A stretch of DNA of 32,000 bases from an uncultured archaeon. GTDB lineage: Archaea; Iainarchaeota; Iainarchaeia; Iainarchaeales; CSSED10-239. Every line of letters begins with the position of its first letter. The stretch's first letter is position 1. The stretch is taken from positions 30,001-62,000 of the forward strand of contig CAZQEL010000001.1 of assembly GCA_964591795.1 (NCBI GenBank). Reading direction: 5' to 3'. This document shows positions 7,388 to 32,000 of this stretch, piece by piece. A program made the translations under genes and the position numbers. The notes under the pieces were generated by a model, which made no database searches, had not been told where the DNA came from, and saw only the letters and a list, made by a program, of their open reading frames with translations.

Positions 7388-7473
7388 ATTTTCTCTTTTC
7401 CTATATTTATTTAGTTTATAATAATATATAAAAACTAATGCTTTTTTTAAAAAATAATAATTTATAATTAAAG

Positions 7474-10645: not shown

Positions 10646-10915
10646 TTATAATCTTCCTTTAAATTCTTTACCAACTTTGAATGAAACTGTTTTACTTGCA
10701 GAAATTTTCATAGCTTTTCCAGTTTGAGGATTTCTACCCATTCTAGCAGCTCTCTTCTTAACTTTGAAAGTACCAAAACCAACTAATTGTAATTTACCTT
10801 CTTTTTTAACAATTACTTTCATAGCTTCTAAAGTTGTATTAATAAACTCTTCTGCTTTTGCTTTTGAGAAATCTGTTTTTTTAACAACAGCTTCAACTAA
10901 TGTTTTTTTATTCAT
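10646..10915 (-). CDS. HU-family (bacterial-type histone-like) DNA-binding protein
   Basis: 89 aa. MNKKTLVEAV...LQLVGFGTFKVKKRAARMGRNPQTGKAMKISASKTVSFKVGK aligns along its full length with my memory of E. coli HU, including the GFGTF...R.GRNPQTG arm. Confidence 0.92.
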   Translation of the reverse strand: MNKKTLVEAVVKKTDFSKAKAEEFINTTLEAMKVIVKKEGKLQLVGFGTFKVKKRAARMGRNPQTGKAMKISASKTVSFKVGKEFKGRL

Positions 10916-10928: not shown

Positions 10929-11042
10929 TTTTTTCTATAAAAAATATAGATTATTAAATTATTATATATAGTAAAGCTTTTTAAATAGATGTGTTTTAAT
11001 CCCTATTTATAGGGCATCTAAGGAGTATTTATGGAAAAATAG

Positions 11043-11116
11043 CAGATCTATTGGGATTTGAACCCAAGTTTTAGGCTCCGCAAGCCTACGTACTATCCAG
11101 GCTATACTATAGATCT
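11043..11116 (-). tRNA. tRNA-Arg (anticodon GCG)
   Basis: Reverse complement reads AGATCTATAGTATAGCCTGGATAGTACGTAGGCTTGCGGAGCCTAAAACTTGGGTTCAAATCCCAATAGATCTG. The acceptor AGATCTA/TAGATCT is perfect. Anticodon stem is TAGGC/GCCTA with loop TTGCGGA, giving GCG. T arm is TTGGG-TTCAAAT-CCCAA. Discriminator is G and no CCA is encoded. A T5 run follows the 3' end. Confidence 0.9.
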
Positions 11117-11126
11117 TTTAAAATAA

Positions 11127-11480
11127 TTATTTTTTTCCGCCTTTACGAGAAATTGTAGAGGTTCCCCAAAAGAAAACAGATACAAGACCAAAGCCTAAAA
11201 ATAAATATCCCATCATAATAGCACTAGTTAAAAATAAATATTTATAAACTAAAAAATAAGCTAAAATACCAGTTACAATAAAAGTAAGAATATTTTTTTC
11301 TCCAAAAGCTTGAGAGGCATTTTCATAAATAAAGAAAACAATTAAAGCCATAATAATATATTTTACCCAAGGAAAAATCACCATAAATCCAGGTACAATT
11401 AATATAGCTACAACTGAAACAATTAATATTTTTACAAGTAATGGAACTGCTCCAAAAACGCCACCTTTATTATTAAGCAT
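11127..11480 (-). CDS. small polytopic membrane protein (about 4 predicted TM helices), last gene of the giant-protein cluster
   Basis: 117 aa, almost entirely hydrophobic helices with a basic C-terminal tail (RKGGKK). The ATG lies 3 nt after the stop of the preceding gene, suggesting translational coupling. An AGGT motif lies upstream. No family recognised. Confidence 0.7.
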   Translation of the reverse strand: MLNNKGGVFGAVPLLVKILIVSVVAILIVPGFMVIFPWVKYIIMALIVFFIYENASQAFGEKNILTFIVTGILAYFLVYKYLFLTSAIMMGYLFLGFGLVSVFFWGTSTISRKGGKK

Positions 11481-11483
11481 AAA

Positions 11484-11855
11484 TTATCTACCTGGAGGTT
11501 TCCCACCCATTCTTTTAACTAAATGATTTCTAGCTGCATGTTCTGTTGCTCCTGGAGTACCATGAGTATCCATTTTTTTACCCATCATTTCTTCAGCTGA
11601 ACCACCAGCACTAATAAAGAAGAAATCAACAAATATTCCAGCTACACCCACTGACAATAAAATATATAATATATATCCAGTTTTAAAAATAGGCCAAAAT
11701 AAAAAGATCATAACAATAACACCAATACTAATCATTACTAATGCAAGTGTATTATGAGTAACTCTTCTTTTGATAAAAGCTATGATTGTAAGTATTAAAA
11801 ATAATTGTAAGATAAAATCAAAATCTTGAAAAAAATTTAAATATATATTTAACAT
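11484..11855 (-). CDS. small membrane protein (about 3 TM helices) with a polar basic C-terminal tail
   Basis: 123 aa. It has hydrophobic helices followed by the tail GGSAEEMMGKKMDTHGTPGATEHAARNHLVKRMGGKPPGR. An AGGA motif lies upstream of the ATG. It starts 24 nt downstream of the 2111-aa gene. No family recognised. Confidence 0.7.
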   Translation of the reverse strand: MLNIYLNFFQDFDFILQLFLILTIIAFIKRRVTHNTLALVMISIGVIVMIFLFWPIFKTGYILYILLSVGVAGIFVDFFFISAGGSAEEMMGKKMDTHGTPGATEHAARNHLVKRMGGKPPGR

Positions 11856-11879
11856 TTTTATTTTTCCTTTATTATTAAT

Positions 11880-14800
11880 TTAAGTATTATTTATAACTGG
11901 ACAAATATAATCACTAGGAATATTAGAAATTATAATGTCAAGTTCATTTTGTGTAAAATTAACTTCACTATCAACCCATTTAATATATGTTCTTTGAGGT
12001 GATTTATGAATACATGCTTTTTCATTTTTTACAAATTCAAAAATTCCTTTAATTGTTTTTAAATTATTCAAATTATTTCCTAAATTATGATCCGAATTTT
12101 TAAACGTAATATCTTCAACATTACCAATTAAATTTGATTTAGAAAATATTTTTGTAAAATCACTATTAGATAACTGAGAAGTTTTAAATTTAAATTGACT
12201 TAAGTCTAAATCAGTAGGTATATATAACATAGTAGTTAAACTTATATTATTATCTGTAACTGTACTTGTGTCTAATATATATCTACCAATATCATCACTA
12301 GAATATAAATTATCAATAAATACAATATCATTACTAGTCCATTTTAAAAAGTTAGAACCAATTAATGGATCTAAAGAATTGTCACCACTATGTAATAAAT
12401 TATAAGATAACTTACTATTAAGTAAACATGCAGCATATGAATATAATGGAATTGGATATGATAAACTATATGTCATTTGAAGTTGTCCATCATTAAATTT
12501 TTTTAAATCTAATATATATCCTTCTGAATCAATAATATTATTTAAATTACCTAGACTATTATAATTATTTATTGCTAAAGTATTAATTGGGTTATTAACT
12601 AAAGAATAATTTAAATCTACAATTGAATCAGATCTTATTTGAATTATAGGGTCATAATTATTTGTTTGTATACCATATCCATCTCTAGTTCCATTTTGAT
12701 TTAATCTTCCGTCAAATGGCATATAATGAAAAGCACTAAGTTCTGATGAACTTAAGTTTTTTACAAATAATAATTGAATATCAATCTTAGTATCATCCAT
12801 AGAATTTTGATAATAATCATTATCATTACCATAAACATCAACCTTATATATTCCAGGCATAAATGTTTTTTGAGTACTATTATTATCAAAAGTAATTTTT
12901 AAGTCACCATCATTAACTGAACTTTCTGTAAATAAATTTGAATTATTAGGTTTAGAAAATTTTGAAAATTGACTAAAAGCATCATTATCTCTATAATCTA
13001 TAAAATCTTTTAAAAGATTGTCAGAAATTCCATCATTCATTAATTTAATATAAAATGGACCTTCAACACAATTTTGAATTTTATAAAATATAGATATTAG
13101 CATCTGTAAAGAATCACAAGCATATTTTTCATACATTTCAGAAACATTATTACCAATACATTTATTAGTCCAACCTCCTTCTTCATATTCTTCACCCCAA
13201 TTAAAAAACACTTTAGGCAAATACTCTAACCCAGTTTTACAAGAATCGGTTTGATCTTGACAATAACCTAAAATAAACATATCAGTGCCATCATTTTGAC
13301 CACCAACACCTATACAATAATCAAAATCAATGGTGCTCTGAGTTATTTCTGGGTCTAATTTAAAAATGGTATAATCAGCAAGAACATTCTTATTAAAGTC
13401 AGAATTAAGAATATCTAAAACTTTAAAGTTAAATAAAGTATTTTCAATTCCTGTTGTTTCATCTAAGGATAAATCACTAAAATTAGAATTATATGTTACA
13501 GAACGTGTTATATCTGTAGTTATTAAAGATAACTCTGAAGATAAATTATTAACTGATAAATTTTCATCAATAGGATTTAAGGATACTGGAGTTAAAAGTT
13601 TAACTTTATATAAATTTAAATTATTATTAAAACTATATATTTTAGATTGACTACATTCATCTTGAGAAATACAAAATATTTCTACTGAATTCCAAGTAAT
13701 ATGTGATATATTAACTATTGATTCACTATTATAAGCCTTAACATTAAATGTTTGTGTAAAATTTACATCATTACCATTAAGTAAAATATTAAATGTTAAA
13801 ACAATTGCTGAGTTGTTTGTAGGATAGTCACCAGTATATGCATCATTAAACTTAAAATTAATTGGAATTAACACTGATGACAAAATATTTTGATTATTTA
13901 AATTAATAGAATCATTAAATACACTATTATCAATAAACAAAGGTAAACTATCTACTATAATATTTTTTAAAACAGCATTAACATCTGAAGATAAATTATA
14001 ATCTATAACAATACTAGGGTTGATATCTTTTATAATTTCAATATCATAAACTTCATTTTCATCAGAATATCTAACACCTTTATTTGGATTAGGATAACTA
14101 GCACTATAATTTATAGAACCTAAATTTTGAACAACAATATTTGAGTTTACATCAAGTAACAAAGTAGTATCATCATTAAACTTTAAATGATTTGTATAAC
14201 TTTCATTAATATCAACACCAGTACTAATATCATCATTTAAAACTAAACTAGTCAAAACAAGAGTTTGAACTTGATTTATATCCTTAGGTAAATCATTAAC
14301 AGTAAAAAGATTAGATTTAATTTGATTTACATCAAATACACTAGATGCTCCTGTGAATGTAAGATCATTTAAATTTGCAACAACAGTTGATTGCTTTAAA
14401 ATATTATAATTTTCAAGATTAACATCTCCAAAAATAATTGAATCATTTAATCTATAAAAATATGTAGAAAGATTAATATTATTTTCTAAAATTGAATATC
14501 CAGATTCAATAGTTTTTGATCTTACAACAGTATTGTTTATAAAACCAGCTTCTGGAGTAAAAATAAAATAAAAATTAATTTTTTTAGACATATCTTCAAC
14601 AGGAAGATAAATATTTTGATCAGTTAACAATCCTTGTGCATCCGTATCACCTAAAGAGATTGCTTCTCCACCAGTTACTTGATATTTAATTAAAATATTT
14701 TCAATTGGTGCATTATAATTATCAACAACTTTAAATGAAACATTATTTTGTCCAATAAATATATCATTATTTAAATTACTAGTAATTTCAAACACAAAAT

Positions 14801-17800
14801 TAACATCTGAATAATATGAATATAATGAAGTATTAATTATAGGGAAATTGTTTAAAATATCTGTTGATAGGACAGGTTCTGAATATGCTGTATTTTCAAA
14901 AAAACCAGTTGGCTTAAATATTGTATAAGTATTAATGTTATAACCTCTGTTTGCATCTATTAAATTTATTGAATAATTATAATCATTAATAACTGTTTGA
15001 TAATAAACAATAGGATCCATATTACCATCAGGATCTCCTGAATCTAATAAATAACCATAGCTTGCATATTCTAAATTATTATTTGTATAACTTGAAGTTT
15101 GATCAATACTACCTTGTCTTAATAAATTTTTCAAATATAAATAATAAATATCATATTTATAATTTGTTTCAATAGATACTGAATAACCATCTACATATGG
15201 AGTTAGTACAGTACCATTAAAATCTTTAATTTTCTTTGAATATATATAATCTAAATTATTAAATGGAATTTGATATTTATTTGTTTTTGAATAGAAATAA
15301 CCATCAGGATAAATTGGAACTTCATTCCAAGAGATAGATTGAATTGGATCAAAATTATATATTTCACCATATTTTGTAGCCAAAGATCTATAACTTAGTT
15401 TGTAAAAATCAGTGGGTGCAACAGGAGCCTCTTTAAATTTAATATTTGCAGAAAATTCTAAAACATTTGGAGAAAGATCCATTACATTAACTTCAAACCA
15501 TTTATATTTATTTCCATTATAATCATAACCTTGATCAGTAGTATAATTTTGATTAAATAAAGTTATATTAAAATCAGGAATATGCTCTCCAGAAAATTTA
15601 TATCCTCTATCAATTTGAATTTCATCTGATAATATATCATCAGAAACAAAATAAATATAATCGTCATCTATAAATATTTCATTTCCTGCTCTTAAGTGTA
15701 AATATTTAATTTCAGAATCACTAAAGCATGAAGTGTATTTAAATTTAAGTCTATATTCATCATCAAGCCCATTATTATTATAATCAATATTGGTTACAAT
15801 TCTAGTTCCTGTTTTATTATATAAGCCAGTTAATTCAAGTTTAGAATCTGAACATGCAACTAAACTAGTTAAAGAAACTTCTTTAAAAATTTCTTGATCA
15901 GGTACAAGTGTTAAAACTTCTGTTTGATAAGTTGTATATCCTTGTGTACTAATAACAGCATAAACTCTATTTACTCCACCAATAAAATAATATTGAATAT
16001 TTGAATCAACATCAACAGACACATAATCAATTACTGAATTATGCTCAACATCATAGAAATTAATATCAAAATTTATATTTGGAGTTACTTTTAAATTTAA
16101 TATTTTTGGAATATCTTGTAAATTCACAAATAATGGTAAAAAAGCATTAACATCAAGCTCTTCAGTACTTGAAGTTCCTTCTCTATCAACAATACCATGT
16201 ACAGCATAAGCATAATAGTTCTTATGAGCCCTCTGTAGTTCAAAATTAACATCACCAAATTGATTAGTAAATTTAGAAACTGGGTTTGTAAGTACAAAAT
16301 TATTATCAACTTCCCTATAAAGATAAACTCTTGCGTTTGAAATATTTTGAATATTATCTTTTACATTAACACCAATTTTTCCAGAATTCAGTTCTGATGA
16401 AAATTCTAAAGGTATAATTATATTTCTATCTAAAGAAGTTACTAAAACTGGATCTGGTTGATTATAACCATTAATTTCAGTATTTATTATTCTAACTCTA
16501 TAATCATAAAAATTAATTACATTAAAAGAATAATAATTTGTATCTTCTGCTATGTATTCAGTAAATACATAACTTTCGTTTGTATCTTTTAATTTTGATT
16601 CAAGAGTAATGTCTCCAAAAACTGGTTCACTAGTATTTGCATCTTTTAAAGTCACAGAAATATAACCAGTAGTACCTAAAATACAAATTCCATCGCTATT
16701 TATATTTAAGAAAGGTTTTAAATGTTCATTATTACAATCAATAACCCCAGCTACACAAAAGTTAGAATACTTAGGTAAAGTACAATCAAAGTTAATTAAA
16801 TCATCTCTTGTAAATAAAACAAAAGAAGTATTAATAGTTTCTTCTTTAAAAACTGTTAAAGGTCCTTTTTTAGGATATGTTAAATATCCTTCTTTTGTAA
16901 CAGTTAAAAGATATTGTTTAGGATCAAGAGAAAATTCACCAAGTCCATAAATGTCAGTTTGTTTATTATCAAGAGGTAAAATAAAATTTGATTGTGAATA
17001 ATTATAAACAGTTACATCAGAACCTAAAAGAGCATCCCCAGAGATATTTTTCACACTAAAACCTAATTTACCAATATCTGAAGTGATTCTAGTTAAAACA
17101 ACTTTATTGTTAGAACCAATTACTTTATTTGTAATTGATGAAAATTTATTTGAAGTTACTGACACTCTTAAACGTCCACATGCAGCAGGAGTTTTAACTG
17201 TAATTCTACCATTAGCTATAAGTGTATTTTTTGGAGTAGGTATTTTTTCATTATTTGTACATGAAAATACAATATTTAATGTTGTATTTAAAATTAAAAT
17301 ATCATTATTTTCAACAAACATAATTTCTCTTTCTTCTTCTTCACCAACTGGTAAAAGAGGGGAATCAAGATCAATTAAAAGAGTTACAGTTTGTCTCAAA
17401 CTATTTTTACTAAGTTTAAATGAATGATTTAAAGTAGTATAATGTTCTTTAGATACAATTAAATTAACATTTTGTTTTTTAGATTTTAAATCTTTAAATA
17501 TTGCTTCTCCAAACACATTTGTAGTTAAAAATGAAATGTTTTCATCATTAATTTGGAAAGTTACTAATGCTCCATTTAAAGGAACACCAGCAGGATCATA
17601 AACATCAACACCTATAGTCCAAGATTTTGAAAAAGATAAAGTACCTGATAAAATTAAATATAATAATAATGCTAAAATTAATAAAAATAAAATAAAACTA
17701 GGAAATACTTTATCAATACGATCTGTTAGTTTATTAACTGGTATAACTTTACTAATTCCATCAATCATTTTATAATAATTATCCTCAAAAAAGAAATAAC

Positions 17801-18215: not shown

Positions 18216-18238
18216 AATTTATCTTTTTTTTAATAATT

Positions 18239-20527: not shown

Positions 20528-20556
20528 ATTTGACTTTCCTTTTTTTTTAAATAATT

Positions 20557-20931
20557 TTAAGATAATTTAAATAAAACATTAATGTTTTCATCAGAATATT
20601 CTATAGTTTGAAATTTAATAAAAAATTTGTGTAAATTATTATTTTGTTTAATTTTACTTGGAACTAGTATTTTAAAAATAACTAAGTTATTATTAAGCAC
20701 ACTAACATTTAAATCATAAATATCAGTAAAAACTGAATTATTAAATGTTTGAAATTTACCATTTGAAAAATTAGAAGAGTCTATTAAATTTAAAGGTATA
20801 CCATCATCTCCTTTTATAACCCCAAACACAAAAGGATTTACATATATTTCATCATCAAAACTATAACTAGCAGCAACTACAAATGAATAAAAAATTATTA
20901 TTGCAAAAAATAAATATAGAAATCTCTTCAT
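20557..20931 (-). CDS. small secreted protein (124 aa) inside the giant-protein cluster
   Basis: The N-terminal signal-like segment is MKRFLYLFFAIIIFYSFVVAASYS and the rest looks beta-rich. It is flanked at 29 and 71 nt by cluster genes on the same strand. No family recognised. Confidence 0.65.
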   Translation of the reverse strand: MKRFLYLFFAIIIFYSFVVAASYSFDDEIYVNPFVFGVIKGDDGIPLNLIDSSNFSNGKFQTFNNSVFTDIYDLNVSVLNNNLVIFKILVPSKIKQNNNLHKFFIKFQTIEYSDENINVLFKLS

Positions 20932-21002
20932 AAATAATTACACTTGAATATTATCCTTGAACTATAAAATATAGTTAAGCAATATATTTATATATATTAC
21001 TT

Positions 21003-24000: not shown

Positions 24001-27000
24001 TTATAATTCATTTTTTGGAAAGCATCATCTTGTTTATTAAAAGTTGATGACAAATAATCAGAAAAGGTAGATGTAACAGTAACTCCATTTTGAGCAATTT
24101 GAGCTTTATATTGTTCAACATCCTGAACTGTAGGAATAGAATTAACATAATCCCAAGGAGTCTGTTCTAAATTATTATTATATAATCTTACACTTTCAGA
24201 AACTTTAGTAGTATCTGAAATTTCAATAAAAGGATCCTCCATCCATAAACCACTAGAATCTTTTGCATTTATTTTTAATAAAGCATAAGCTGAAGTAACT
24301 TCACGTCCAATATTATTAACAACAGATATTTTATTGTTTAAAACATAAGCACCAGGAGCAATAGTTGAATCTTTTCTTTTAATTGAAACAGTTTTTTCTG
24401 AGTCTAAAAGACTAAAATTTAAAATACCATTTTCTTCATCAGTATTATCAATAGATAAATCTCTACAGGAATAATCATTTCCTTCACAAAGATCCATTTT
24501 TAATGTTGCTTTACCAAAACATTCGTTTTTAATAGTTAGATCTTTAGCTACAGTATCCTCAAGAACAAAAAGACCACCAGAATTAATTTTTTCTCCACCA
24601 TCATAATAGGATAAACATTGTGTTAAATCCATAATTGATATATTTGCTTTTAATAAAATATCATTAGAACCTTTATTTACAAAAGTTAAACCCTCTTCTG
24701 TTTCTACTTGAGCATTTAAATAAATATCAGTTTTTACTTCTGCAAATTTAGCACCATTTGTGTTAAATGCAATTTCAACAGTATATTCTTCTTCAGGTCT
24801 CATTTCATTAATTAAAATTCTATAATAATTTTCTGATAATTGTATTTGATTAGAAGCACCTGAACCAATTAATTTTAAGAAATAAATACCATATCTATCT
24901 CCATTAGATTTAATTTTTGCTTGAACATTCTTAATTGTTATAGGTAAATTTCCTTCTTTAGAGATACAAGTGTTTTTTATTTTTAAAGTTGTAGATTGGG
25001 TTGTTGTTGAAACAACTGTATTCCATTCACCAGCACTTTGAGTAACAACTAAACAATCATCTTCTAAAACACCGTTTCCAACAGATAATTTTACATTAAC
25101 AGGAATATTAAATAAATATTTTTGATTATTTAATAAATAAGTGGCAGTTAAAGCACCTAAAATATTTTCACTTACAGAATGTGATTGAGCACTTTCAGAA
25201 GGTGCAAATTTAATTAAAATTTCTTTAGATTCGTTTGCAGGTATTACAAAACCATCAGGTGTACTAATTATTTGATTATTAAGATAATTAACAGTTTGTA
25301 AAAGATTTAATAAATAGGATTTATTAAAAGAAACATCCTGTTCATTAAATTGATTTAAAATTAATGGATATGCAGTTTTATTTTTAAGTTCTAAAGTATA
25401 TATCTCCCCATCCATATTTGTCTTATGAATAAATACTTCTAATGGTGAATTTGAATTAATTATTTCAGAATTATTAAAAATATCAATAATATCTCTAGTA
25501 ATTGAAAATTCAACTGGATCTGCAAAATATTTAGATTTAATAGATTCAATTATAAAAGTTTCTCCTGGTCTTAAAGATGGAAGACTAATTGTAGCTTTTC
25601 CTTCTGCATCAGTTGTTCTACCAGTTGAAACTATAGTTGTTCCAGTTATTGTTTTTTGTAAAATATTAATATTTGCACTCTCAACAGCATTTCCAGTAGT
25701 ATCTTTAACAATTACGGTTAATGTAAATGGAACACCAGGTACAATATTTTTAGGTTCATAATCAACTATCATTTTATCAAGATCTGATACAACAAAGTTA
25801 ATTGGTAAAGTATAAATTACTGATTGTTCAGAAACAATTCTAGTTTGAAGTTTTGATTGTCCTAAAATTAATGGGAATAATTTTAAATTAAAATTTATAT
25901 TTGAAAACGGATTTAAATTATCCTTTAAAAGTTCATTTTCATAAAATGGAAGTTTAAAATTAGTTTCTCCAGTTGCAGTTTCGCCCACTGATGAAAATTC
26001 ACCTGTAACATCATATGATTTAATACCAACCATAGCTGTAGGATTACCTTCAGAATTAACATTAACTGCTGAAAGTCTAGCATCAGGATAATTATTAGGT
26101 GATGAGTTTGTTATTTGATATTCTAAAGTATAATCAGAGTTAACAAGCATTGGAATATTTTTATTTCCTCCAATATCATATCTTAATCCTTCTGAAACAT
26201 CAACATATTGTCCTGAGAAACAAAATGTAGTATTACAAAGACTTGTTGCTTCTACAAAATATTGTAATTGAGTATAATTTTGAGTCATGTAGTTTATAGA
26301 TGTAATTGATGATGTATAAAAGAAAGATACTTTATCATTAGTTTGTGCATTTCTAATTCTTACAGGAATTGTAATTTCATGAACTGATGCTGGAAAATCA
26401 TTTACTTGTATATTTACAAGTTTTGATTCTAAATAATTACTTGAATTTGAAAAAGGTTCACTCTCATAATAAACAGCTACACCTAAAGAGTTATTTTCAG
26501 ACATTATAAAAATAATATCATCACTAACATTTATTTCACTTCCAGCTCTAAGTGTAAAATTAAAATTTGTACTTGAAGATGGCATTATAATTTTATATTT
26601 TAAATAAAATACTTGATTATTTTTTAAAGATTCAACTTCTTGATAGTCAGTATTATATAAACCTAAATATTCAGTAACAACATCTTCAGTTGTAAGCGCT
26701 CTTTCTAAAATAATATTTTTAATAATAGTTTTACTTTTATAAATTCTAAACATTTCAGTAAAATAAGGTAAATAACCATCAGTTTCTATTTTTATGAAAA
26801 CTTTTTTATCTGCTTTTATTTGATTTTGCAAAGTACCATTAGCTGAAGCCATTGCAGTTCCTAAAACAGCACCTGTTTCTGAATAAAAAGTTACTGTTGA
26901 ATTACCAACTATTTCTTCTAATTTATTTTTTACATTTAAATTAATTGTTCCTTTTCCAATAATAACAGGAAGAGTAATATTTGTATCTGTTGGTGGTAAA

Positions 27001-28511
27001 TTATGATATTCAGAAGAAATTTCTTCAATATAAAGATTCTTTGTCTTAACTGTAAAGTTTAAATCTGGAATATTTTTAAAAACTGCATTTCCATTTTCAT
27101 CAGAAATACTAAAATCAAATCTAGGATCAATATATTGCCCATCAGCATCATATAACCAAGATTTAATACCAATAATTGGTTTATCATCTTCGTCTTTTAT
27201 TGAAACAATAATATTTGAAACATTACTTATAGTTATTTTTTCTAAATTAAAAGTATATATGTTTAATGAATTAGATACTGACATTAAATTTCCAGGAATG
27301 TACCCTTCTGCTGCTACTTTAAGTGAATAATTTTTATTAGTATCTACATTAAAAATAAAACCTTCATGAAGTTGTCTATCTTCAACATTTTGATTTCCAT
27401 CTAAAAGTAAAGTAACAATAGGATTTGTAGAAGCATCTAAAACAATACCTGTATCTCTATCTTTTACAAAAACAGTTATTTCATTTAAAATAATTTCTTG
27501 ATTTGTATCTGGATCAATAACAGGACTAATTCCATCTCCAGTATCAATCATATTAATAGTAATTTCAGACATTGCATTTTTTATAACAATTACATCTTCT
27601 TGTGATGCTAAATATCTATTTTGAACATCTGTAGCTTTAACAACATAATCACCAATAGGAATAGAATCAAAAGATCCAACCCCAAAGTTTGATTGAATTG
27701 TTTTTATTGAACTAACAGGATCATCAACTGAGAATATTTTTAAAGTAATTGAGTCTTCAATATAATACTCTCCACTCATTAAAGAAACATAAGCAGATCC
27801 AACTTCTAAAGAAATTTCTTTTGGACTTAATCTAATGATTGAATCAGACATTTTTATTGGAATACTTGTAGCATTATATTTATCACTTACTACATTTGCA
27901 TAAAGAGTTTTACAGCTTGAAGGAACTTCTAAAGACACAGAACCATCAACTGTTTCTATTGATGAAGGTGTAATTACATCTCCATTATCACAAATAATAG
28001 TTACACTTAAAGCATCTTTAATTTTTTGTTCAGTTAAAGCATCTTGAAAATATACAATTTTTGGAAAATTAACTGGAATATTTAAAAGACCGATTATAAA
28101 ATTAAAAGTTTGTCTATCAAAAATTAGTTCTTGTTCATAATAGTCATAACCTTCTTGTTCAACAATAAACAAATAAGAATTATTTTTATTTAAGGTGATT
28201 TTAAAAGAACCAGCAACATTTGTAGTATAATTATTTGTAGTTCCGTCTGATATGTTTCTAAGTTTAAAATCAAAATTACTTAAAATATTATTTTCATTAT
28301 CAGCAAGCCTTAAAGTTACATCAATGTTATTTGATTTTAATGAACCTAAACTTGAACCAAAAATTAAATAAAGTACTATTAAAATAATTAAAATGAATAA
28401 AAAAAAAGAAGTTAAAGGATACTTTTTATCTAAAGGACCTGTTATTTTCTTAATTGGAATTCTATTATCTATCCCTGTAAGAATATTTTGCCATGTCTCT
28501 TTAAAACTCAT
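21003..28511 (-). CDS. giant surface protein (about 2502 aa): N-terminal TM anchor, beta-sandwich/Ig-like stalk, internal Ala/Gly-rich hydrophobic island, conserved C-terminal module
   Basis: Uninterrupted 7.5-kb ORF. I place the start at the ATG at 28509-28511 (MSFKETW...). The track's GTG (28518-28520) lies inside a GGGTGAT Shine-Dalgarno at 28516-28522. The TM anchor is LTSFFLFILIILIVLYLIF. Repeated carboxypeptidase-regulatory/Ig-like units include IKDEDDKPIIGIKSWLYDADG...DENGNAVFKNIP and VKDTTGNAVESANINILQ...TDAEGKATISLP. A hydrophobic island lies at track aa 1521-1595. The C-terminal ~900 aa is homologous to the 973-aa protein. Confidence 0.9.
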   Translation of the reverse strand: MSFKETWQNILTGIDNRIPIKKITGPLDKKYPLTSFFLFILIILIVLYLIFGSSLGSLKSNNIDVTLRLADNENNILSNFDFKLRNISDGTTNNYTTNVAGSFKITLNKNNSYLFIVEQEGYDYYEQELIFDRQTFNFIIGLLNIPVNFPKIVYFQDALTEQKIKDALSVTIICDNGDVITPSSIETVDGSVSLEVPSSCKTLYANVVSDKYNATSIPIKMSDSIIRLSPKEISLEVGSAYVSLMSGEYYIEDSITLKIFSVDDPVSSIKTIQSNFGVGSFDSIPIGDYVVKATDVQNRYLASQEDVIVIKNAMSEITINMIDTGDGISPVIDPDTNQEIILNEITVFVKDRDTGIVLDASTNPIVTLLLDGNQNVEDRQLHEGFIFNVDTNKNYSLKVAAEGYIPGNLMSVSNSLNIYTFNLEKITISNVSNIIVSIKDEDDKPIIGIKSWLYDADGQYIDPRFDFSISDENGNAVFKNIPDLNFTVKTKNLYIEEISSEYHNLPPTDTNITLPVIIGKGTINLNVKNKLEEIVGNSTVTFYSETGAVLGTAMASANGTLQNQIKADKKVFIKIETDGYLPYFTEMFRIYKSKTIIKNIILERALTTEDVVTEYLGLYNTDYQEVESLKNNQVFYLKYKIIMPSSSTNFNFTLRAGSEINVSDDIIFIMSENNSLGVAVYYESEPFSNSSNYLESKLVNIQVNDFPASVHEITIPVRIRNAQTNDKVSFFYTSSITSINYMTQNYTQLQYFVEATSLCNTTFCFSGQYVDVSEGLRYDIGGNKNIPMLVNSDYTLEYQITNSSPNNYPDARLSAVNVNSEGNPTAMVGIKSYDVTGEFSSVGETATGETNFKLPFYENELLKDNLNPFSNINFNLKLFPLILGQSKLQTRIVSEQSVIYTLPINFVVSDLDKMIVDYEPKNIVPGVPFTLTVIVKDTTGNAVESANINILQKTITGTTIVSTGRTTDAEGKATISLPSLRPGETFIIESIKSKYFADPVEFSITRDIIDIFNNSEIINSNSPLEVFIHKTNMDGEIYTLELKNKTAYPLILNQFNEQDVSFNKSYLLNLLQTVNYLNNQIISTPDGFVIPANESKEILIKFAPSESAQSHSVSENILGALTATYLLNNQKYLFNIPVNVKLSVGNGVLEDDCLVVTQSAGEWNTVVSTTTQSTTLKIKNTCISKEGNLPITIKNVQAKIKSNGDRYGIYFLKLIGSGASNQIQLSENYYRILINEMRPEEEYTVEIAFNTNGAKFAEVKTDIYLNAQVETEEGLTFVNKGSNDILLKANISIMDLTQCLSYYDGGEKINSGGLFVLEDTVAKDLTIKNECFGKATLKMDLCEGNDYSCRDLSIDNTDEENGILNFSLLDSEKTVSIKRKDSTIAPGAYVLNNKISVVNNIGREVTSAYALLKINAKDSSGLWMEDPFIEISDTTKVSESVRLYNNNLEQTPWDYVNSIPTVQDVEQYKAQIAQNGVTVTSTFSDYLSSTFNKQDDAFQKMNYKSLENLEFMGTTDEGAMPVAAAIGITVLAAATVTAVGLSIATAAALEIAVASATAAGSVGFAAVLAAIPVYGWITLAVIVLVSWAATSWKNEFAYPVLNNKYLDVPQKYTLSNGEFLKIITVDDVSDESSYLNIFDITGARYYTYNDLITRTQDSDKIYNKIKDRLTKDADLSLTDYVLCNNPNSSIEDYYSQIIKNRNCDNSFNPTIEDGVLSQSIKCYGAKPTRNRIQLETEMFYTCKVNETLWPEQSGIKPLQFSFTDNIYSHINNDSKKYYFKNYEFNPTLEDSVEIQDPAFANSEKIGNYRFGFFITKPEETQNYNLVVQDCVTDTGKTGKTGSGAVPNVLLDWDWSVQDINRCSEKYCDSTQLTQVVLNRINKAEEFISQRTVLYPLSPQEQVIQSLNGFYYIKNAEPINADNNVSVSKVGIDSVELSTAENKFISKIYLDNRSGSIKIGNIVAKLNNEYPTAAYYRNADGDLVGFTEALNLIPVTLNISEDDTFSEIVLEFTESSNSPIIGDDLSLNINLTGESVDMQNNKFESIVSLDIYDEAPVTDCKVPSTTANYNGISYLDLWFNKNMYPDNVNGNGWSQQDIIDFKKLLEFDAYLITDNYNQNFINDFDVAYGGLASKEDGSGTGIYTFMSSPEVFSNGYLSELFKNNLYFIKQYSSEKNNVNLTSPGKYKIKIDFLFNDSSWRFTDVADQVDLNTYVTFRFLQSPETDSVFYRIPFNGFVGQTNSGYNRQGYGVSYTGDIINIDGDNVKSDLDNGSNALRNINITNSSDFYRINSSLETRGNILSVKYNANNIDLILSKSEAVPILMEVTKNNTNPLNVFYRLKDKSDNTLTDSSSLLRWTGVGSGCDFSGNSIFNMAYYDRYASLNGPQSSYILDWPQVIKTGEIYLRTIFYAPEKETYTLENKSDQDVGVKFSLNGTDFSPNVSLGYQTAVSSINSIKSVFDLIAENQICVLNSTDGSSSEFFYNPAEIYPEEFIAERDALKCS

Positions 28512-28515
28512 AAAA

Positions 28516-28522
28516 ATCACCC
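28516..28522 (-). promoter_or_regulatory. Shine-Dalgarno site (GGGTGAT) of the 2505-aa gene
   Basis: The transcribed strand reads GGGTGAT-TTTT-ATG. This matches the archaeal or bacterial anti-SD complement GGAGGTGATC. Confidence 0.6.
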
Positions 28523-28533
28523 TGTGTTAATAA

Positions 28534-31455
28534 TTAATTTATTATACATCCATCGTTGTTTTCAATCCATATAGTTTGTGATTCACTTGATAGATCTCCA
28601 CCGAATAATGGTTCTGATACTGCAATAGGATTATAATATATTTTTAATGAATTACCAGTGTAATCAATACATGCTTTCTTTTCATTAACAAGATTAAAAA
28701 TCTCACTTACAAACTTAATATCATTTTCTAAAATATTATTAAGTATAACAGAGTTTGATCCACTTGTATTATCTTTTGTAAAAAACAATGCTGAATCATC
28801 AGCTGAATCTTGATATAATACACTTTTACCATTACCTGTTTTAAAATTACTTGGAGTGTATAAAACTGTTCTTAAATAAACATTTCCATGTCTTGTAATA
28901 TTCTTTGCTTCCCATTCAACACCATAAGACACTGCTTGACTTGGAGTAATTGGTGCAAGTCTTGATGAAAGTGCATGTACATCTGGTCTTTCAAGATAAG
29001 CTTCTTGTACTGATATTCCTGAAAAGTCAAGACAATTACCAATACCTGTCCATGGAACTAAAGTTCCTGAAGTAAGTGCTGGTTCTCCACCTTGATTTTG
29101 TGGTCCACCAATATCAAGTTTATAGAAACTATAAGCATCATTTGCTTGATTAGATACTTTTAAAGCAACTGGAGTTGCTCTTGATGGTATAAAATAAAGT
29201 TCTGGATTTGTTTTATTTTCAGATAAATTAATACTAAGTAACATACCTCTTGTTGAACCGTTATTTAAGAAAGAAAATTCATTTGGAAGACGTCCATATT
29301 CCTTTACACTTACAGTATTAATTGTATTTGATTGTGTAAAAGGTTCTGTTCTTAAATATTGACCAGTTGCAGTTTCAACAATTGTTACAATATCTCCAGT
29401 AAAATCAATACCATAACCTTGTCTTGCGTTATCTGAATCAACACCTACAAGTCCATCAAATGGCATATAATAAAGAGGAGAATCTCTTTCTGGTGAAATT
29501 TCTCTAGATAAAACTATATCTACATTTCCTGTAATATTGCCAGCATCATCAAACAATCTCCATTGATCGTCAAATGTTACATCTAATAAAACATTATATC
29601 TTCCAGGACCTTGTAAAATAAGTCTTCCTGATTCTGAATCCATTGTTGATTTAAAATTAAAATTATTAGATATAAAATATTTATAATATTTTTCAATATA
29701 ATCTGTTGGAGCTGCAGTTATTGTAAATCTATAATATCTATCAAAATCTGATTTAAAATCATCAGAATATCCATCTTTCATTAAATAAGATCTAAACTCA
29801 ACTAATGAAGTATCAATCTTTGTGTTCTTTGAATATAAATTTAAATTCCTTGAAATCTTTGGTAAATTACAAACTTCTGAATTTGGAGTAAATATGTTTT
29901 CTAAAATATTATCCAATTCTGAATCTACAATACTATATGGGGTATCCAATATTAAAACTGCAGAAACTTTTAAACTTGTAGTATCATCTAAAATTATTCC
30001 AACATCAAATGATTCATTTCCAACATAAACTTCATTATTAAAATCATTTATATTTAAAGTAATTAATTTTGATTCAACTTGAACATTATTTTTATAAACT
30101 GTTAAACTTAAATGACCATATGGAGAAGGAGATATATTTTTATCAGCATTATTAAAACCACCTTCTATTCTATAATCAACAGCAATATATCTATCATCAT
30201 AACTTGAATTTAAAATAGTTAGACCTAAGTTATCTGTTGCAGAAACTAAATTTTGAGTAACACCTGGTGTTGGACAAGTGAAATCTCCTTTATTTGTTTG
30301 AACAAAATCATCTATTTCTTTTAATTTATTTAAAAGTTCAATTGAGAACTGTGTTGAATCACAAAAGATTGATTGTTTATCAGCTTCTCCTGTTAAATCA
30401 GCATCACACCAATTAAGAGTATTTACATACTTATCTGAAATTAATTGTACCTCTTGATTATATCCAAAATCCCAATTAAATGCAATCTTTGGTAATATTT
30501 CTGAACCTGTTTGTCCTAAAAGCATTCCACTTTCAGTAACACAATTAACTTGATCAAGATTAGTATTATCAAGCACATCTCTTGTATAAGAATTAAATAT
30601 TAATTTAAATGGTTCAGTTACAATTTCATCTTTTCTATTATCATTTATTATTTTTAAAAAATTATCATTTCCACTTAAAACTCTACTAATTTTTATTAAT
30701 GGAGTACCTGTTGAAAAAGGTGAAGCTAAGAAAGTTAACCAATCTCCACTTAAAAATTTACCATTAAATATATCGTTTGGAGTTAAACTATAACTAATAT
30801 CATTTATATATGTTGATTTAGGATATTTAACAACAAAATTTCTATATTCGTATTCGTTTTCAATAGTTTTTGCAGGATCTTCAAATAATATTTCTCTTTT
30901 TTGAATATCTAAAACATCATTATTTGAATCTAAAACTTGTGTTAATTTTGTTTTGTCAGCAAGTCTAAATGTTGGTGAATTGCTACCATTATCTATTTCT
31001 ATTAAATTTTTAACTTTTATAAACTGTGCATCAAGAACATTTTTATCTGTTAATAAAATATTTTCATATGGTAAATAATCGGGTATATCCTTTGCATCCA
31101 ATTTATTAACATATACAAAATCTTCAACATGTTCAATTGTATAATCTTTAATGTCATTTGAAATATTTACTTTATCTCTATCAAGCGCAAAATTAATTTC
31201 AACTTTTGATAATGAACTAAAAGTTTTAAATGCTGAAAAAGCACCTACTAAAATTCCATGAACAACAGGACTTAATCCAAATACTTTGGTTAAAAGACCA
31301 CCTCCAGAACTAAATAGTGAATCTACTAATCCCTTTCCAACAGCTTCTGTAGCATCATCATTGCCGGGTGCAGCTACAGGCACGCTAATAAAAGAAAGCA
31401 TTAGAGTTATCATTAATATTATTCCTAGGAATTTAGTTTTATTTTCATATTTCAT
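28534..31455 (-). CDS. secreted 973-aa protein: signal peptide, Gly-rich hydrophobic segment, then a full copy of the module forming the C-terminal third of the 2505-aa protein
   Basis: The signal peptide is MKYENKTKFLGIILMITLMLSFISVPVAA. The hydrophobic Gly-rich segment AVGKGLVDSLFSSGGGLLTKVFGLSPVVHGILVGAFSAFKTF spans aa 38-79. Blocks shared with the 2505-aa C-terminus include CVTESG..G.TGS..P...FNWDF, FCDSTQ, YLMKDGYSDDFKSDFD, PGRYNV, YYMPFDG...RQGYGI.FTGDI, WTGIGNCLDFSG, YLRTVLYTP and YYNP. An AGGTG Shine-Dalgarno lies 8 nt upstream of the ATG. Confidence 0.9.
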   Translation of the reverse strand: MKYENKTKFLGIILMITLMLSFISVPVAAPGNDDATEAVGKGLVDSLFSSGGGLLTKVFGLSPVVHGILVGAFSAFKTFSSLSKVEINFALDRDKVNISNDIKDYTIEHVEDFVYVNKLDAKDIPDYLPYENILLTDKNVLDAQFIKVKNLIEIDNGSNSPTFRLADKTKLTQVLDSNNDVLDIQKREILFEDPAKTIENEYEYRNFVVKYPKSTYINDISYSLTPNDIFNGKFLSGDWLTFLASPFSTGTPLIKISRVLSGNDNFLKIINDNRKDEIVTEPFKLIFNSYTRDVLDNTNLDQVNCVTESGMLLGQTGSEILPKIAFNWDFGYNQEVQLISDKYVNTLNWCDADLTGEADKQSIFCDSTQFSIELLNKLKEIDDFVQTNKGDFTCPTPGVTQNLVSATDNLGLTILNSSYDDRYIAVDYRIEGGFNNADKNISPSPYGHLSLTVYKNNVQVESKLITLNINDFNNEVYVGNESFDVGIILDDTTSLKVSAVLILDTPYSIVDSELDNILENIFTPNSEVCNLPKISRNLNLYSKNTKIDTSLVEFRSYLMKDGYSDDFKSDFDRYYRFTITAAPTDYIEKYYKYFISNNFNFKSTMDSESGRLILQGPGRYNVLLDVTFDDQWRLFDDAGNITGNVDIVLSREISPERDSPLYYMPFDGLVGVDSDNARQGYGIDFTGDIVTIVETATGQYLRTEPFTQSNTINTVSVKEYGRLPNEFSFLNNGSTRGMLLSINLSENKTNPELYFIPSRATPVALKVSNQANDAYSFYKLDIGGPQNQGGEPALTSGTLVPWTGIGNCLDFSGISVQEAYLERPDVHALSSRLAPITPSQAVSYGVEWEAKNITRHGNVYLRTVLYTPSNFKTGNGKSVLYQDSADDSALFFTKDNTSGSNSVILNNILENDIKFVSEIFNLVNEKKACIDYTGNSLKIYYNPIAVSEPLFGGDLSSESQTIWIENNDGCIIN

Positions 31456-31502
31456 ATATTTTACACCTTTAATTTCATAAAAGTTTTTTTTAATAAATTT
31501 AA

Positions 31503-32000
31503 TTATTTATATGAACAACATGGTTCATAAACCCCATGACTTGTATTTGAACATGCATTAAAAGTTGCAAACACTTTTCCAGTTTCAATTTGACAACCTC
31601 TTGCTCTATCAGTTCCATCACATCTATAGACATATTTATCTCCATTTGGTTTAATACTAAATGAAGCATCACAAGTCTCACTTGTGTTATCCAGAACTTC
31701 TAATAAATTTAAAGCAACAGCAGCTTCATTTTTATAAACGTCTAAATTATCTTGTAATTTAGATGATGTATTAAATTTTGTTGCAGCATTGTTATATGCC
31801 CCCATAGCACTATTCCAAGAATTTTCAGTATATTCTGACGCACTATAATTAGTGCCTGAAAAAGACATACTTTCTGCGCTTGCAAGAACTATTTCAACAG
31901 CATCAAAAGTCTGAGCAGCAGGGGATTTACTCACAAGTTTTGCAATCAAACTATTTAATTCAGTATTCTCTGCAACAGTAATACTTTCTTTATCTTTTAA
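31503..32000 (-). CDS. C-terminal part of a larger protein with a six-Cys C-terminal domain (gene continues beyond the right window edge)
   Basis: The track ORF (31503..31949) begins at a TTG. The same frame stays open for the remaining 17 codons to position 32000 (LKDKESITVAENTELNSLIAKLV...), so the real start is probably outside the window. The last ~55 aa contain six Cys (ETCDASF...YRCDG...RGCQIE...NACSN...EPCCSYK). It ends 47 nt upstream of the 973-aa gene. Confidence 0.65.
   Translation of the reverse strand, partial: LKDKESITVAENTELNSLIAKLVSKSPAAQTFDAVEIVLASAESMSFSGTNYSASEYTENSWNSAMGAYNNAATKFNTSSKLQDNLDVYKNEAAVALNLLEVLDNTSETCDASFSIKPNGDKYVYRCDGTDRARGCQIETGKVFATFNACSNTSHGVYEPCCSYK

Follow-up and report, generated by a model that had tools for sequence, protein, structure and literature searches.

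Two-component S-layers are known from Crenarchaeota, such as the SlaB anchor/stalk with its SlaA canopy in Sulfolobales and the tetrabrachion of Staphylothermus. Among DPANN archaea, the nanohaloarchaeal SPEARE proteins are large surface proteins for which a role in contact with the host has been proposed. The same role has been proposed for large Cys-rich surface proteins of Ca. Huberarchaeum (PMC6792436). Classical S-layer proteins are 40–200 kDa in size and poor in sulfur-containing residues (bioRxiv 10.1101/2021.04.28.441871), and a putative archaeal secretion/membrane complex associated with arCOG01314 has also been described (Makarova et al. 2015, PMC5898192). Against this background, we analyzed a 32,000-nucleotide stretch (hereinafter the window) from an Iainarchaeota (Diapherotrites) archaeon, a DPANN lineage related to Ca. 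Forterrea, which codes for most of a cluster of giant surface proteins. With moderate confidence, we propose that this cluster is the Forterrea-clade version of an Iainarchaeota-specific cell-envelope operon that builds a stalk-and-head coat with a membrane platform.

Extent and Gene Content of the Cluster

All eight minus-strand genes of the original prediction, which had been made from the window alone, were found at their coordinates (Table 1), and the intergenic gaps (47, 13, 71, 29, 23, 24 and 3 nt) are exactly as given there. The cluster itself is not the ~20 kb proposed but ~33 kb (~10,880 codons in total): the locus L001, which matches the window at 100% identity across 3467 bp, continues past the right edge of the window with a full 1862-aa giant, u1862, preceded by a 2307-aa giant. 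What had been taken for a partial Cys-rich protein is a genuine ORF with a Cys-rich tail but belongs to u1862. Operon-like spacing had also been invoked; while the gaps hold, all window ORFs of at least 80 aa, barring those antisense inside the giants, share the minus strand, and short gaps of 23–67 nt separate the housekeeping genes as well. Hence, common strand and spacing alone are not distinctive, unlike the conserved synteny, which is the strong evidence for the cluster. The nearest relatives, Ca. Forterrea multitransposorum and other Iainarchaeota/Diapherotrites MAGs, bear out the surmise of a DPANN-type genome.

Table 1. Features of the cluster, in window coordinates.
Feature	Position	Strand	Basis
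Partial ORF: Cys-rich tail, last 166 codons of u1862	31503..32000, runs on past window	(-)	L001 identity
g973, secreted	28534..31455	(-)	ORF call, hydrophobicity profile, module HMM
g973 predicted signal peptide	31363-31455	(-)	hydrophobic residues 6-31
g973 conserved Gly-rich amphipathic helix	31213-31284	(-)	hydrophobic residues 58-76
g973 C-terminal module	28543-30639	(-)	module HMM
g2505, B-type giant	21003..28520	(-)	ORF call, Pfam, module HMM
g2505 cytoplasmic motif and anchor	28332-28520	(-)	
g2505 beta-sandwich stalk	about 24141-28331	(-)	
g2505 Ala/Gly-rich hydrophobic hairpin with acidic flanks	23739-23960	(-)	
g2505 C-terminal module	21015-23111	(-)	module HMM
g124, small secreted protein	20557..20931	(-)	N-terminal hydrophobic segment
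g762, secreted Cys- and Gly-rich repeat protein	18239..20527	(-)	ORF, composition, repeats
g2111, additional giant	11880..18215	(-)	ORF call, Pfam, module HMM
g2111 motif and anchor	17622-17798	(-)	
g2111 divergent C-terminal module	11898-13646	(-)	module HMM
g123, small membrane protein	11484..11855	(-)	hydrophobicity profile
g117, small membrane protein	11127..11480	(-)	hydrophobicity profile
tRNA-Arg(GCG), downstream boundary of the cluster	11042..11116	(-)	same position in L077 and L078

Architecture of the Giants

The giants of the cluster are paralogs with a common layout: behind a conserved ~40-aa cytoplasmic motif come a membrane anchor, a stalk of chained beta-sandwich domains (~1400 aa) and a ~700-aa C-terminal module. 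Their masses, estimated from length, are roughly 230–280 kDa, and they contain 19–21 Cys. The N-terminal anchors of g2505 and g2111 are apparent in hydrophobicity profiles, and across the fetched loci an HMM of the N-terminal motif matches giants or giant fragments only. The g2505 ORF starts at a GTG, with its orthologs starting at the ATG of codon 4 (2502 aa), while g2111 has a 165-aa cytoplasmic N-terminal extension. The suggestion that only generic beta-sandwich repeats are recognizable is borne out: in Pfam searches g2505 and g2111 match beta-sandwich families alone (CarboxypepD_reg, Big_1 and SpaA) and the other six proteins match none; in a set of 18 giants, bMG3 is found in 14 and MG4 in 9. 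An AF2 model of g2505 residues 560–1600 is all-beta to about residue 1450 (pLDDT mostly 65–93), and Foldseek relates this stalk to Ig/MG domain arrays, e.g., those of hydin, alpha-2-macroglobulins and PrgB, with E values of 1e-13 to 1e-17 for MG arrays; the TM-scores of 0.1–0.17 indicate a common domain type only.

The C-terminal module defines a family of 747 representative clusters, in each of which it lies at the extreme C-terminus of 2200–3250-aa proteins; the named members come from Diapherotrites and carry the annotation of a hypothetical or a CarboxypepD_reg-domain protein. The module contains Cys; searches of Pfam, NCBIfam and PDB sequences yielded no relative, and Foldseek gave no global match among PDB and viral models. 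Its HMM matches residues 273–971 of g973 (E 1e-172) and residues 1524–2106 of g2111 (E 1e-68). Within the giants, conservation is among the highest in the core of the module and in the N-terminal motif, whereas the hydrophobic-hairpin region and a beta-sandwich insert of the module evolve fastest (identity of 0.22–0.35 vs. 0.5–0.6). The giants include distinct A and B types, each of which is retained. The 55–75-aa hydrophobic hairpin is seen in the B-type, between stalk and head, and is flanked on both sides by acidic, Cys-bearing stretches, with a basic cytoplasmic loop being absent. Therefore, both of its ends probably lie outside the cell, and a location in the cell's own membrane is not required.

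The A-type giant appears to be split in this organism. The N-terminally anchored u1862 represents its stalk half, with residues 1–1500 aligning to the first 1500 aa of giants encoded as one chain in AR10 and other Iainarchaeota, while g973 aligns with the C-terminal ~700 aa of 2300–2700-aa giants in AR10 and other genomes. Thus, the 973-aa secreted protein of the original prediction retains its ORF and N-terminal signal-like segment, but we reject it as an independent gene family: by these alignments it likely corresponds to the detached C-terminal half of a giant encoded as a single protein in other Iainarchaeota. Its AF2 model has pLDDT values mostly of 80–93 over residues 300–970, with Foldseek recovering local CARDB/C2-like beta-sandwich matches only.

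Small Membrane Proteins and Accessories

Two small membrane proteins, g123 and g117, follow the giants. Hydrophobicity profiles indicate three TM segments and a polar tail in g123 and four TM segments in g117, and the two are paralogs (hhalign, family vs. family: probability 98%, E 1.9e-13, reproduced on repeat). The 284 homologs of g123 are all annotated as 'hypothetical', none having a Pfam domain. In 36 loci g123 lies directly 3′ of the last giant, and g117 comes after it in 24 loci by blastp and in 10 more via the c6 cluster. Both are core components across Iainarchaeota. By contrast, g124 and g762, each with an N-terminal hydrophobic segment consistent with a signal peptide, are accessories of the Forterrea clade, to which g124 is specific: g124 orthologs occupy the same position in L003, L007, L009, L011, L077 and L078, and those of g762 likewise keep its position at 41–42% identity. 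Searches of Pfam, NCBIfam and PHROG gave no family match for g124, and these databases and PDB gave none for g762, which has 16 Cys, 8.9% Gly and three internal repeat units at 19405–19797.

Conservation across Iainarchaeota

The core arrangement, two to four giants followed by g123 and g117, was recovered at 70 loci, which represent at least 61 species-level genomes, almost only among Iainarchaeota MAGs; those genomes that are complete (Forterrea, AR10 and an Iainarchaeum) have one locus each. Gene order is kept from 83% down to 35% g973 identity, and the succession from giants to g123 to g117 persists in dozens of genomes at 25–30% protein identity. The full order, including the housekeeping flanks, is retained in L077 and L078, where the giants are only 50–56% identical (g2505 56%, g2111 50%). 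In the same comparison g762 and g124 show 41% and 43% identity, as against 85% for g123, 83% for g117, 93% for HU and 80% for AlaRS, a pattern that fits exposed coat subunits atop a conserved membrane core. The cluster's genes thus co-occur in relatives, as the original prediction had asked to be checked, and a fortuitous neighborhood is not supported. Nor did the searches yield a full-length match to S-layer or pilin families. The claimed lack of enzymatic and secretion components also stands after Pfam, NCBIfam, PHROG and 18-giant HMM searches; within the cluster we found neither enzymes, ATPases or pilins nor classical S-layer domains, diversity-generating retroelements or signatures of mobile elements.

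A Proposed Envelope Coat and Its Alternatives

On these grounds, none of the cluster proteins appears to belong to a described family. We posit that the giants, anchored in the cytoplasmic membrane, would form an S-layer-like stalk-and-head surface coat in which the C-terminal modules of different paralogs bind each other outside the cell. As judged from co-occurrence, g123 and g117 might constitute a heteromeric membrane platform to which the giants dock by their conserved N-terminal motif and their anchor, or which aids the insertion and assembly of such long substrates once Sec has exported them. In the Forterrea clade one giant would have become two proteins, u1862 as the anchored stalk and g973 as the secreted head, for which the halves would have to remain associated, and g124, g762 and the fourth giant, g2111, may be later-added coat subunits. 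Some points go against a coat: the size and Cys content of the giants fall outside the classical S-layer criteria, three to five different giants exceed the one or two proteins usual for S-layers, and the B-type hairpin is superfluous in a simple canopy model.

A dedicated host-attachment or membrane-interaction apparatus would make use of that hairpin: the giants would reach a partner cell, the B-type hairpin and A-type Gly-zipper-like helices would insert into its membrane and the variable beta-sandwich of the C-terminal module would recognize the host surface. The small genome of this DPANN archaeon, the predicted symbiotic lifestyle of Forterrea, a hairpin not bound to lie in the membrane of its own cell, the rapid evolution of the hairpin region and the module's insert, and two adjoining genes for membrane-anchored or secreted serpins speak for such an apparatus. 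We nevertheless regard it as possible but doubtful, as the module core and N-terminal motif rank with the best-conserved regions of the giants and no lytic, pore-forming or transport domain was found by Pfam, Foldseek or giant HMM searches; moreover, the hairpin could equally insert in cis via Sec, and AF2 gives no confidence in this region of g2505. Conservation of the module is at least as compatible with a general role in the envelope as with attachment to a host. The data can be accounted for without a host-specific function; as the outermost layer, the coat would also be the surface meeting any partner cell.

A chance neighborhood of independent paralogous adhesin genes and two unrelated small membrane proteins is improbable; the paralogy of the giants could stem from tandem duplication, and close spacing on a common strand is general in the window, but the deep conservation of gene order, the retention of both giant types and the far stronger conservation of g123 and g117 than of their neighbors speak against it. 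The simpler alternative of a paralogous S-layer or adhesin set is partly right, as the large proteins are paralogs with a common motif, stalk and module. We consider it very improbable that the cluster is a known system (a classical S-layer glycoprotein of archaea, type IV pili, a protease trap resembling alpha-2-macroglobulin, the arCOG01314 system or a conjugation/Ced-type machinery): its MG3/MG4-type and Ig-like domain matches, Foldseek hits to alpha-2-macroglobulins and a weak TrbL_3 match of g123 (E 0.096) are offset by the lack of S-layer HMM matches in the window proteins or the 18 giants, of a thioester motif, and of matches in the window to pilins, ATPases (including MoxR and VirB4/HerA), vWA or DUF4350, with the low Foldseek TM-scores conveying domain type only. 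Least credible of all is a mobile element or virus-derived island integrated beside the tRNA-Arg, which lies 10 nt from the cluster end: integrases, phage protein family matches and repeats flanking the cluster are lacking, 2.9 million viral contigs hold no relative, composition is uniform, relatives retain the flanks and the operon occurs throughout the phylum.

Comparison with Known Systems

The proposed coat resembles SlaA/SlaB in that a membrane-anchored long stalk bears a large outer head, with u1862 and g973 mirroring SlaB and SlaA, respectively. Both systems are mainly beta-sandwich and probably glycosylated extracellular proteins, sequons being present. However, SlaA/SlaB show no sequence or fold match to the giants, whose anchor is N-terminal with a conserved cytoplasmic motif, which are Cys-rich and of 230–280 kDa, number three to five as opposed to one or two, include the hairpin-bearing B-type, and always share their operon with two small membrane proteins.

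Giant Ig-like adhesins (enterococcal PrgB, PDB 8beg; bacterial RTX/Bap-type) similarly project a terminal module on beta-sandwich strings, with fast-evolving surface-exposed parts, and the Ig-like domains of PrgB are matched by the giant stalk in Foldseek. The giants differ in having an archaeal N-terminal signal-anchor and no T1SS, sortase or autotransporter export signal, a terminal module that is conserved phylum-wide rather than variable, and several paralogs in fixed order with dedicated membrane partners. With MG arrays of the alpha-2-macroglobulin/complement type (A2ML1 7q1y, CD109 8s3o, E. coli ECAM 4ziq) they share bMG3/MG4 Pfam matches, but lack the CxEQ thioester motif and any match to the thioester domain or other non-beta-sandwich alpha-2-macroglobulin families, and their C-terminal module is unrelated. 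The arCOG01314 complex likewise combines predicted anchored and secreted Ig-like 'S-layer-like' proteins with small 2–5 TM membrane proteins (PMC5898192); its defining DUF4350 protein, MoxR-type AAA+ ATPase, vWA and pfam07760 proteins had no match in the window, and it is widespread in Euryarchaeota, whereas the present cluster was seen almost exclusively in Iainarchaeota MAGs. Finally, compared by description, the Huberarchaeum and SPEARE proteins are, like the giants, very large, membrane-anchored, Cys-containing extracellular proteins of genome-reduced DPANN with a proposed contact role; the giants differ in having no protease, nuclease, lectin or haemolysin-type domain and in belonging to a definite multi-gene unit whose order and partners are conserved.

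Extent and Gene Content of the Cluster

The eight consecutive minus-strand genes of the original prediction were all recovered with unchanged coordinates, as were the gaps of 47, 13, 71, 29, 23, 24 and 3 nt between them. Strand and spacing carry no distinction here because the housekeeping genes of the window are equally compact and co-directional. The predicted 20-kb cluster is real but larger, comprising ~10,880 codons or ~33 kb. Its first gene, originally described as encoding a partial Cys-rich protein, is indeed partial in the window, and an overlapping locus (L001), identical to the window over the shared 3467 bp, places it as the C-terminus of an N-terminally anchored giant surface protein of 1862 aa (u1862), with a 2307-aa giant lying further upstream. 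At the other end the cluster is closed by a tRNA-Arg(GCG) gene, whose position is kept in two related metagenome contigs (L077 and L078) and which is missing from the loci of archaeon AR10 and Iainarchaeum; neither an integrase nor an att-like repeat was found near it.

Hydrophobicity profiles of the N-terminal segments of g973, g124 and g762 (window proteins are named by their length in residues) are consistent with signal peptides, while g2505 and g2111 show N-terminal anchors and the small proteins g123 and g117 are polytopic. Pfam detects CarboxypepD_reg, Big_1 and SpaA-type β-sandwich domains, which are confined to g2505 and g2111, and no domain in the other six window proteins; searches of all eight with NCBIfam and PHROGs returned nothing beyond β-sandwich families. 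Together with AlphaFold2/Foldseek, these searches bear out the earlier impression that only generic β-sandwich repeats are recognizable.

The window has a GC content of 25%. All ORFs of at least 80 aa, except those antisense within the giants, are on the minus strand, as are the three tRNA genes, and GC skew is negative throughout (1-32000). Both observations are consistent with a single replichore with a strong gene-strand bias.

Features of the window discussed in the text (positions in the 32,000-nt stretch)
Feature	Position	Strand	Remarks
Two-HKD phospholipase-D-family protein	467-1600	-	N-terminal membrane anchor
EgtD-like histidine-specific methyltransferase	4373-5320	-	Methyltransf_33
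HisRS ORF	6086-7531	-	Mechanical call; GTG start at 7531
tRNA-His	7473-7545	-	Immediately upstream of histidyl-tRNA synthetase gene; also in L077, L078
Serpin	7925-9190	-	Tandem pair; Pfam Serpin E 1e-108
Serpin	9221-10492	-	Tandem pair; Pfam Serpin E 1e-113
HU/IHF DNA-binding protein, bacterial type	10646-10915	-	PF00216 E 5e-29; 93% identical in L077, L078
tRNA-Arg(GCG)	11042-11116	-	10 nt past g117 stop
g117	11127-11480	-	Small polytopic membrane protein
g123	11484-11855	-	Small polytopic membrane protein
g2111	11880-18215	-	Giant
g2111 N-terminal extension	17720-18215	-	Residues 1-165
g762	18239-20527	-	
g762 DNA repeat units	19405-19797	-	Three units, 135-168 nt spacing
g124	20557-20931	-	
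g2505	21003-28520	-	B-type giant
g2505 hydrophobic stretch	23739-23960	-	Residues 1521-1594, 74 aa
g973	28534-31455	-	Part of A-type giant
u1862, 3′ end	31503-32000	-	Last 166 codons; part of A-type giant

Common Architecture of the Giants

All-against-all BLAST and a dedicated HMM identify a C-terminal module of ~700 aa common to g973, g2505 and g2111, which is also present in degenerate form in the upstream 2307-aa giant. The N-terminal region is in turn common to g2505, g2111 and u1862. Most of 74 giants carry a ~40-aa cytoplasmic motif, LEDKYYxxLDKIDxKIPVYKVIDPIDKVVPSF, ahead of the anchor, and among the fetched loci the HMM of this motif matches only giants or giant fragments. We delineate the family by the motif (in the form LEDKYY..LDK...IPVYK.IDPIDK..PSF) with its anchor, a β-sandwich stalk and the C-terminal module; g2505 and g2111 each possess all three, and u1862 and g973 possess them jointly. 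End-to-end alignments of the giants with each other give 20-27% identity.

The stalk of g2505 was modelled with AlphaFold2 over residues 560-1600 as a chain of all-β sandwiches extending to about residue 1450, mostly at pLDDT 65-93. Foldseek relates this model to Ig/MG arrays such as those of hydin, α2-macroglobulins, complement C5 and PrgB with E-values down to 1e-20 at TM-scores of 0.1-0.17, indicating that the domain type alone is shared with them. When 18 full-length giants were searched singly against Pfam, only β-sandwich families were detected, and NCBIfam gave the same picture for these 18. A further peculiarity of g2111 is a Lys-rich cytoplasmic extension preceding the conserved motif and anchor; other giants do not have it, and the alignments to the L077 and L078 orthologs start at residue 1.

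The C-terminal Module, a Split Giant and a Putative Hydrophobic Hairpin

The C-terminal module is distinguished by the signature YCDATQF ... DGYSxDFxxDFDxY ... PFYYLPFDG ... GRQGYG. An AlphaFold2 model of g973 built from 30 sequences reaches pLDDT 80-93 over most of residues 300-970, and Foldseek searches of PDB and BFVD with this model recovered local β-sandwich matches of the CARDB, C2 and GH2 types and no global relative; likewise, the module profile had no significant match among PDB sequences. HMMER, run exhaustively on 1.84 billion representative proteins, recovered 747 clusters with the module, 495 of which reach E <= 1e-30. The best 150 of these 747 matches have the module running to the C-terminus, in proteins that mostly measure 2200-3250 aa. 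Those with named sources come from Diapherotrites, where their annotation reads "hypothetical" or "carboxypeptidase regulatory-like domain".

Residues 1-1500 of u1862 and 270-950 of g973 align respectively to the N- and C-terminal parts of one protein of 2300-2700 aa in AR10, as in the majority of the other Iainarchaeota. From these alignments, the A-type giant appears to have been split in the Forterrea clade just 5′ of a conserved Gly-rich helix, with the downstream half, g973, having apparently gained a predicted signal peptide. B-type giants (g2505 and its phylum-wide orthologs) display a hydrophobic Ala/Gly-rich stretch of 55-75 aa about 145 aa ahead of the module; at the equivalent position in A-type giants the segments are glycine-zipper-like and no more than weakly hydrophobic. 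Across the phylum the B-type stretch has acidic, Cys-bearing flanks on both sides and no basic residues between them, which implies a putative helical hairpin whose ends are both extracellular; AlphaFold2 has no confidence over this region of g2505. Among Forterrea-clade orthologs variation peaks in the region of this stretch and in a β-sandwich insert in the module, and conservation is highest in the N-terminal motif and the core of the module.

Small Membrane Proteins, Accessory and Flanking Genes

The g123 and g117 families are paralogous (hhalign probability 98%, E 1.9e-13). In the window (11127-11855), as in other loci of the family, the two follow the giants: g123 comes directly after the last giant in 36 loci, and g117 is found in 24 loci plus 10 more. 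All 284 detected members of the g123 family are unnamed and have no Pfam domain, with Diapherotrites as the named sources. Pfam searches with 26 g123-family and 20 g117-family members gave isolated chance matches only, and neither profile, nor that of g762, had a significant match among PDB sequences. In g762, three diverged DNA repeat units encode Gly-rich "NFNLNL.AGNGG.GG" coils, a pattern suggesting a β-helix-like repeat domain.

Iainarchaeota outside the Forterrea clade (loci L020-L075, e.g., L043 4625-9500 and L025 2874-11800) have a longer operon tail. This comprises a third paralog, c9, after g123 and g117 (hhalign 94% to g123); the small membrane proteins c1 (~106 aa, Gly-rich tail) and c3 (~128 aa, Lys-rich tail); on the other strand, coiled-coil proteins that are conserved; a conserved protein of ~505 aa, present in 14 loci and without a Pfam match; and a protein of ~810 aa which by eye looks like a family-B DNA polymerase. 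A search of the window for c1, c3, c4 and c9 found none of them.

Past the tRNA-Arg gene lies an HU/IHF gene of bacterial type inside an archaeal genome, followed by two serpin genes whose products each have a hydrophobic anchor or signal at the N-terminus. In DNA, the serpin pair is 87-92% identical over stretches, suggesting recent duplication or gene conversion. The equivalent position holds one serpin in L077 and none in L078. As secreted protease inhibitors beside a surface-protein operon, the serpins may be functionally linked to it. The mechanical call of the HisRS ORF overlaps tRNA-His, and hence the true start is probably Met49 (MVEKMILE...). The order of the phospholipase-D-family and EgtD-like genes is maintained in L077 and L078.

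Distribution and Synteny

A scan for the g973 family in one genome per GTDB species yielded 70 loci, including those of three complete genomes, namely Ca. Forterrea multitransposorum (64% identity; genome GC 25%), archaeon AR10 and an Iainarchaeum. The loci come almost entirely from Iainarchaeota/Diapherotrites MAGs, which supports the DPANN assignment of the original prediction. Co-occurrence of the genes is likewise conserved among relatives. The order upstream giant-u1862-g973-g2505-g124-g762 is retained from 83% down to about 43% g973 identity, and relatives at 35-38% retain it up to g2505 with insertions or losses. L077 and L078 hold g2505-g124-g762-g2111-g123-g117-tRNA-Arg-HU, followed by matching housekeeping genes. 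In these contigs g123 (85%), g117 (83%), HU (93%) and AlaRS (80%) evolve slowly, and g2505 (56%), g2111 (50%), g762 (41%) and g124 (43%) far faster. The phylum-wide invariant core consists of 2-4 giants followed by g123 and then g117, to which the Forterrea clade adds g124, g762 and g2111.

A Likely Surface Coat or a Possible Contact Apparatus

The data speak for an envelope system that is dedicated and lineage-specific, and not for a chance neighborhood or a mobile island. Its most likely function is that of a stalk-and-head surface coat, because the architecture is all-β-sandwich, because fission of stalk and head is tolerated in parallel to SlaB/SlaA, and because exposed subunits evolve at a different rate from the membrane core. 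In such a coat, the C-terminal modules of paralogous giants would associate outside the cell, with g123/g117 potentially serving the conserved N-terminal motif and its anchor as a platform in the membrane or as an assembly factor. Against this, the size, Cys content and diversity of the giants are atypical of S-layers, and the B-type hairpin is left without explanation.

Host attachment or membrane interaction by the giants is a live rival, which need not exclude a coat; the hairpin with its external acidic flanks, the fast-evolving insert of the module and the adjoining serpin genes would be compatible with it. A bolder version, which we regard as improbable, casts the giants as trans-membrane bridging machines: anchored at their N-termini, they would extend a ~50-nm stalk to a partner cell and insert into its membrane either, in the B-type, the acid-flanked Ala/Gly-rich hairpin or, in the A-type, the glycine-zipper helices; in that membrane the modules would assemble, with g123/g117 as platform or conduit. 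If true, it would amount to a novel cell-cell contact or fusion apparatus and explain how a DPANN lineage taps its host.

Significance

We know of no cultured member of the Iainarchaeota, and the searched literature identifies no envelope protein for them; to our knowledge, how DPANN archaea build their surfaces and touch other cells is largely unexplained. The cluster, which would take up roughly 4% of the genome if this is near the 0.84-Mb size of Forterrea, offers DPANN cell biology concrete, conserved targets. In kind it would be a giant-protein surface coat or adhesin system with three uncharacterized building blocks, each of them new and conserved throughout the phylum: a C-terminal domain family, an N-terminal motif with a putative role in sorting or docking, and a family of small membrane proteins that are paralogs. 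They lend themselves to metaproteome searches, to labelling as antigens and to docking into cryo-ET maps, and could mark the phylum in genomic data. If the giants form a coat, an unusual multi-giant architecture joins the archaeal envelopes; if they bridge cells, a host-contact machine has been identified.

Comparison with Known Systems

The tested mobile and diversity-generating systems do not account for the cluster. We found no long near-identical repeat involving it and no RT domain in the window, and a DGR target is therefore rejected for want of a TR/VR repeat pair. A virus or mobile element is likewise rejected, there being no viral-contig relatives, integrase, phage family or flanking repeat, and the flanks being conserved. 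With respect to conjugative T4SS/Ced-Ted systems, the window has no VirB4/HerA-type or other ATPase, and g123 alone gave a sub-threshold TrbL_3 match (E 0.096, 12 bits vs. a cut-off of 23). As for type IV pili and the archaellum, no pilin, PilB/FlaI ATPase or PilC/FlaJ platform was matched in the window, and the giants' N-termini carry their own conserved motif instead of the class III signal peptide of pilins. The arCOG01314-associated system (PMC5898192) has none of its DUF4350, MoxR AAA+ ATPase, vWA or pfam07760 proteins in the window, nor was any component matched among proteins sampled from the conserved neighbors of related loci.

The giants do share an MG array with α2-macroglobulins (bMG3 in 14/18 giants, MG4 in 9/18; Foldseek E 1e-13 to 1e-17 to A2ML1, CD109 and ECAM). 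However, the thioester motif C[GLAS]EQ is absent from the window giants and occurs by chance in 3/144 family members, and no thioester (TED) domain family matches any of the 18 giants; lacking the motif, they are not α2-macroglobulins.

Classical archaeal S-layer glycoproteins are 40-200 kDa in size with few sulfur-containing residues (as summarized in bioRxiv 10.1101/2021.04.28.441871), from which the giants depart on both counts (g2505, 2505 aa and 21 Cys; g2111, 2111 aa and 19 Cys; u1862 also has 21 Cys). The classical S-layer HMMs (S_layer_N/C PF05123/PF05124, TIGR01564; DUF1608/TIGR01567 of Methanosarcina) match neither the eight window proteins nor the 18 giants, and the other NCBIfam/TIGRFAM S-layer models do not match the latter. 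The top 50 PDB matches listed for each of the g973 and g2505 models are generic β-sandwiches with no S-layer entry, and hence no SlaA/SlaB fold, among them. The searches yielded no full-length match to an S-layer or pilin family, such as would have counted against the original prediction, whose interpretation is supported in part. Nor did the searched literature yield a description of the operon, be it on Forterrea, Diapherotrites S-layers, giant or large DPANN surface proteins, or arCOG02487.

Thus, the cluster stands outside all the families tested, be they classical S-layers, SlaA/SlaB, pili, α2-macroglobulins, arCOG01314, T4SS/Ced or DGR. Through gene fission, the anchored u1862 without a module and g973 with a predicted signal peptide and module would fit a SlaB/SlaA-like pattern of separate stalk and secreted canopy subunits if the two associate physically. 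In its working the system would come closest to two-component stalk-and-canopy S-layers or to giant Ig-repeat adhesins.
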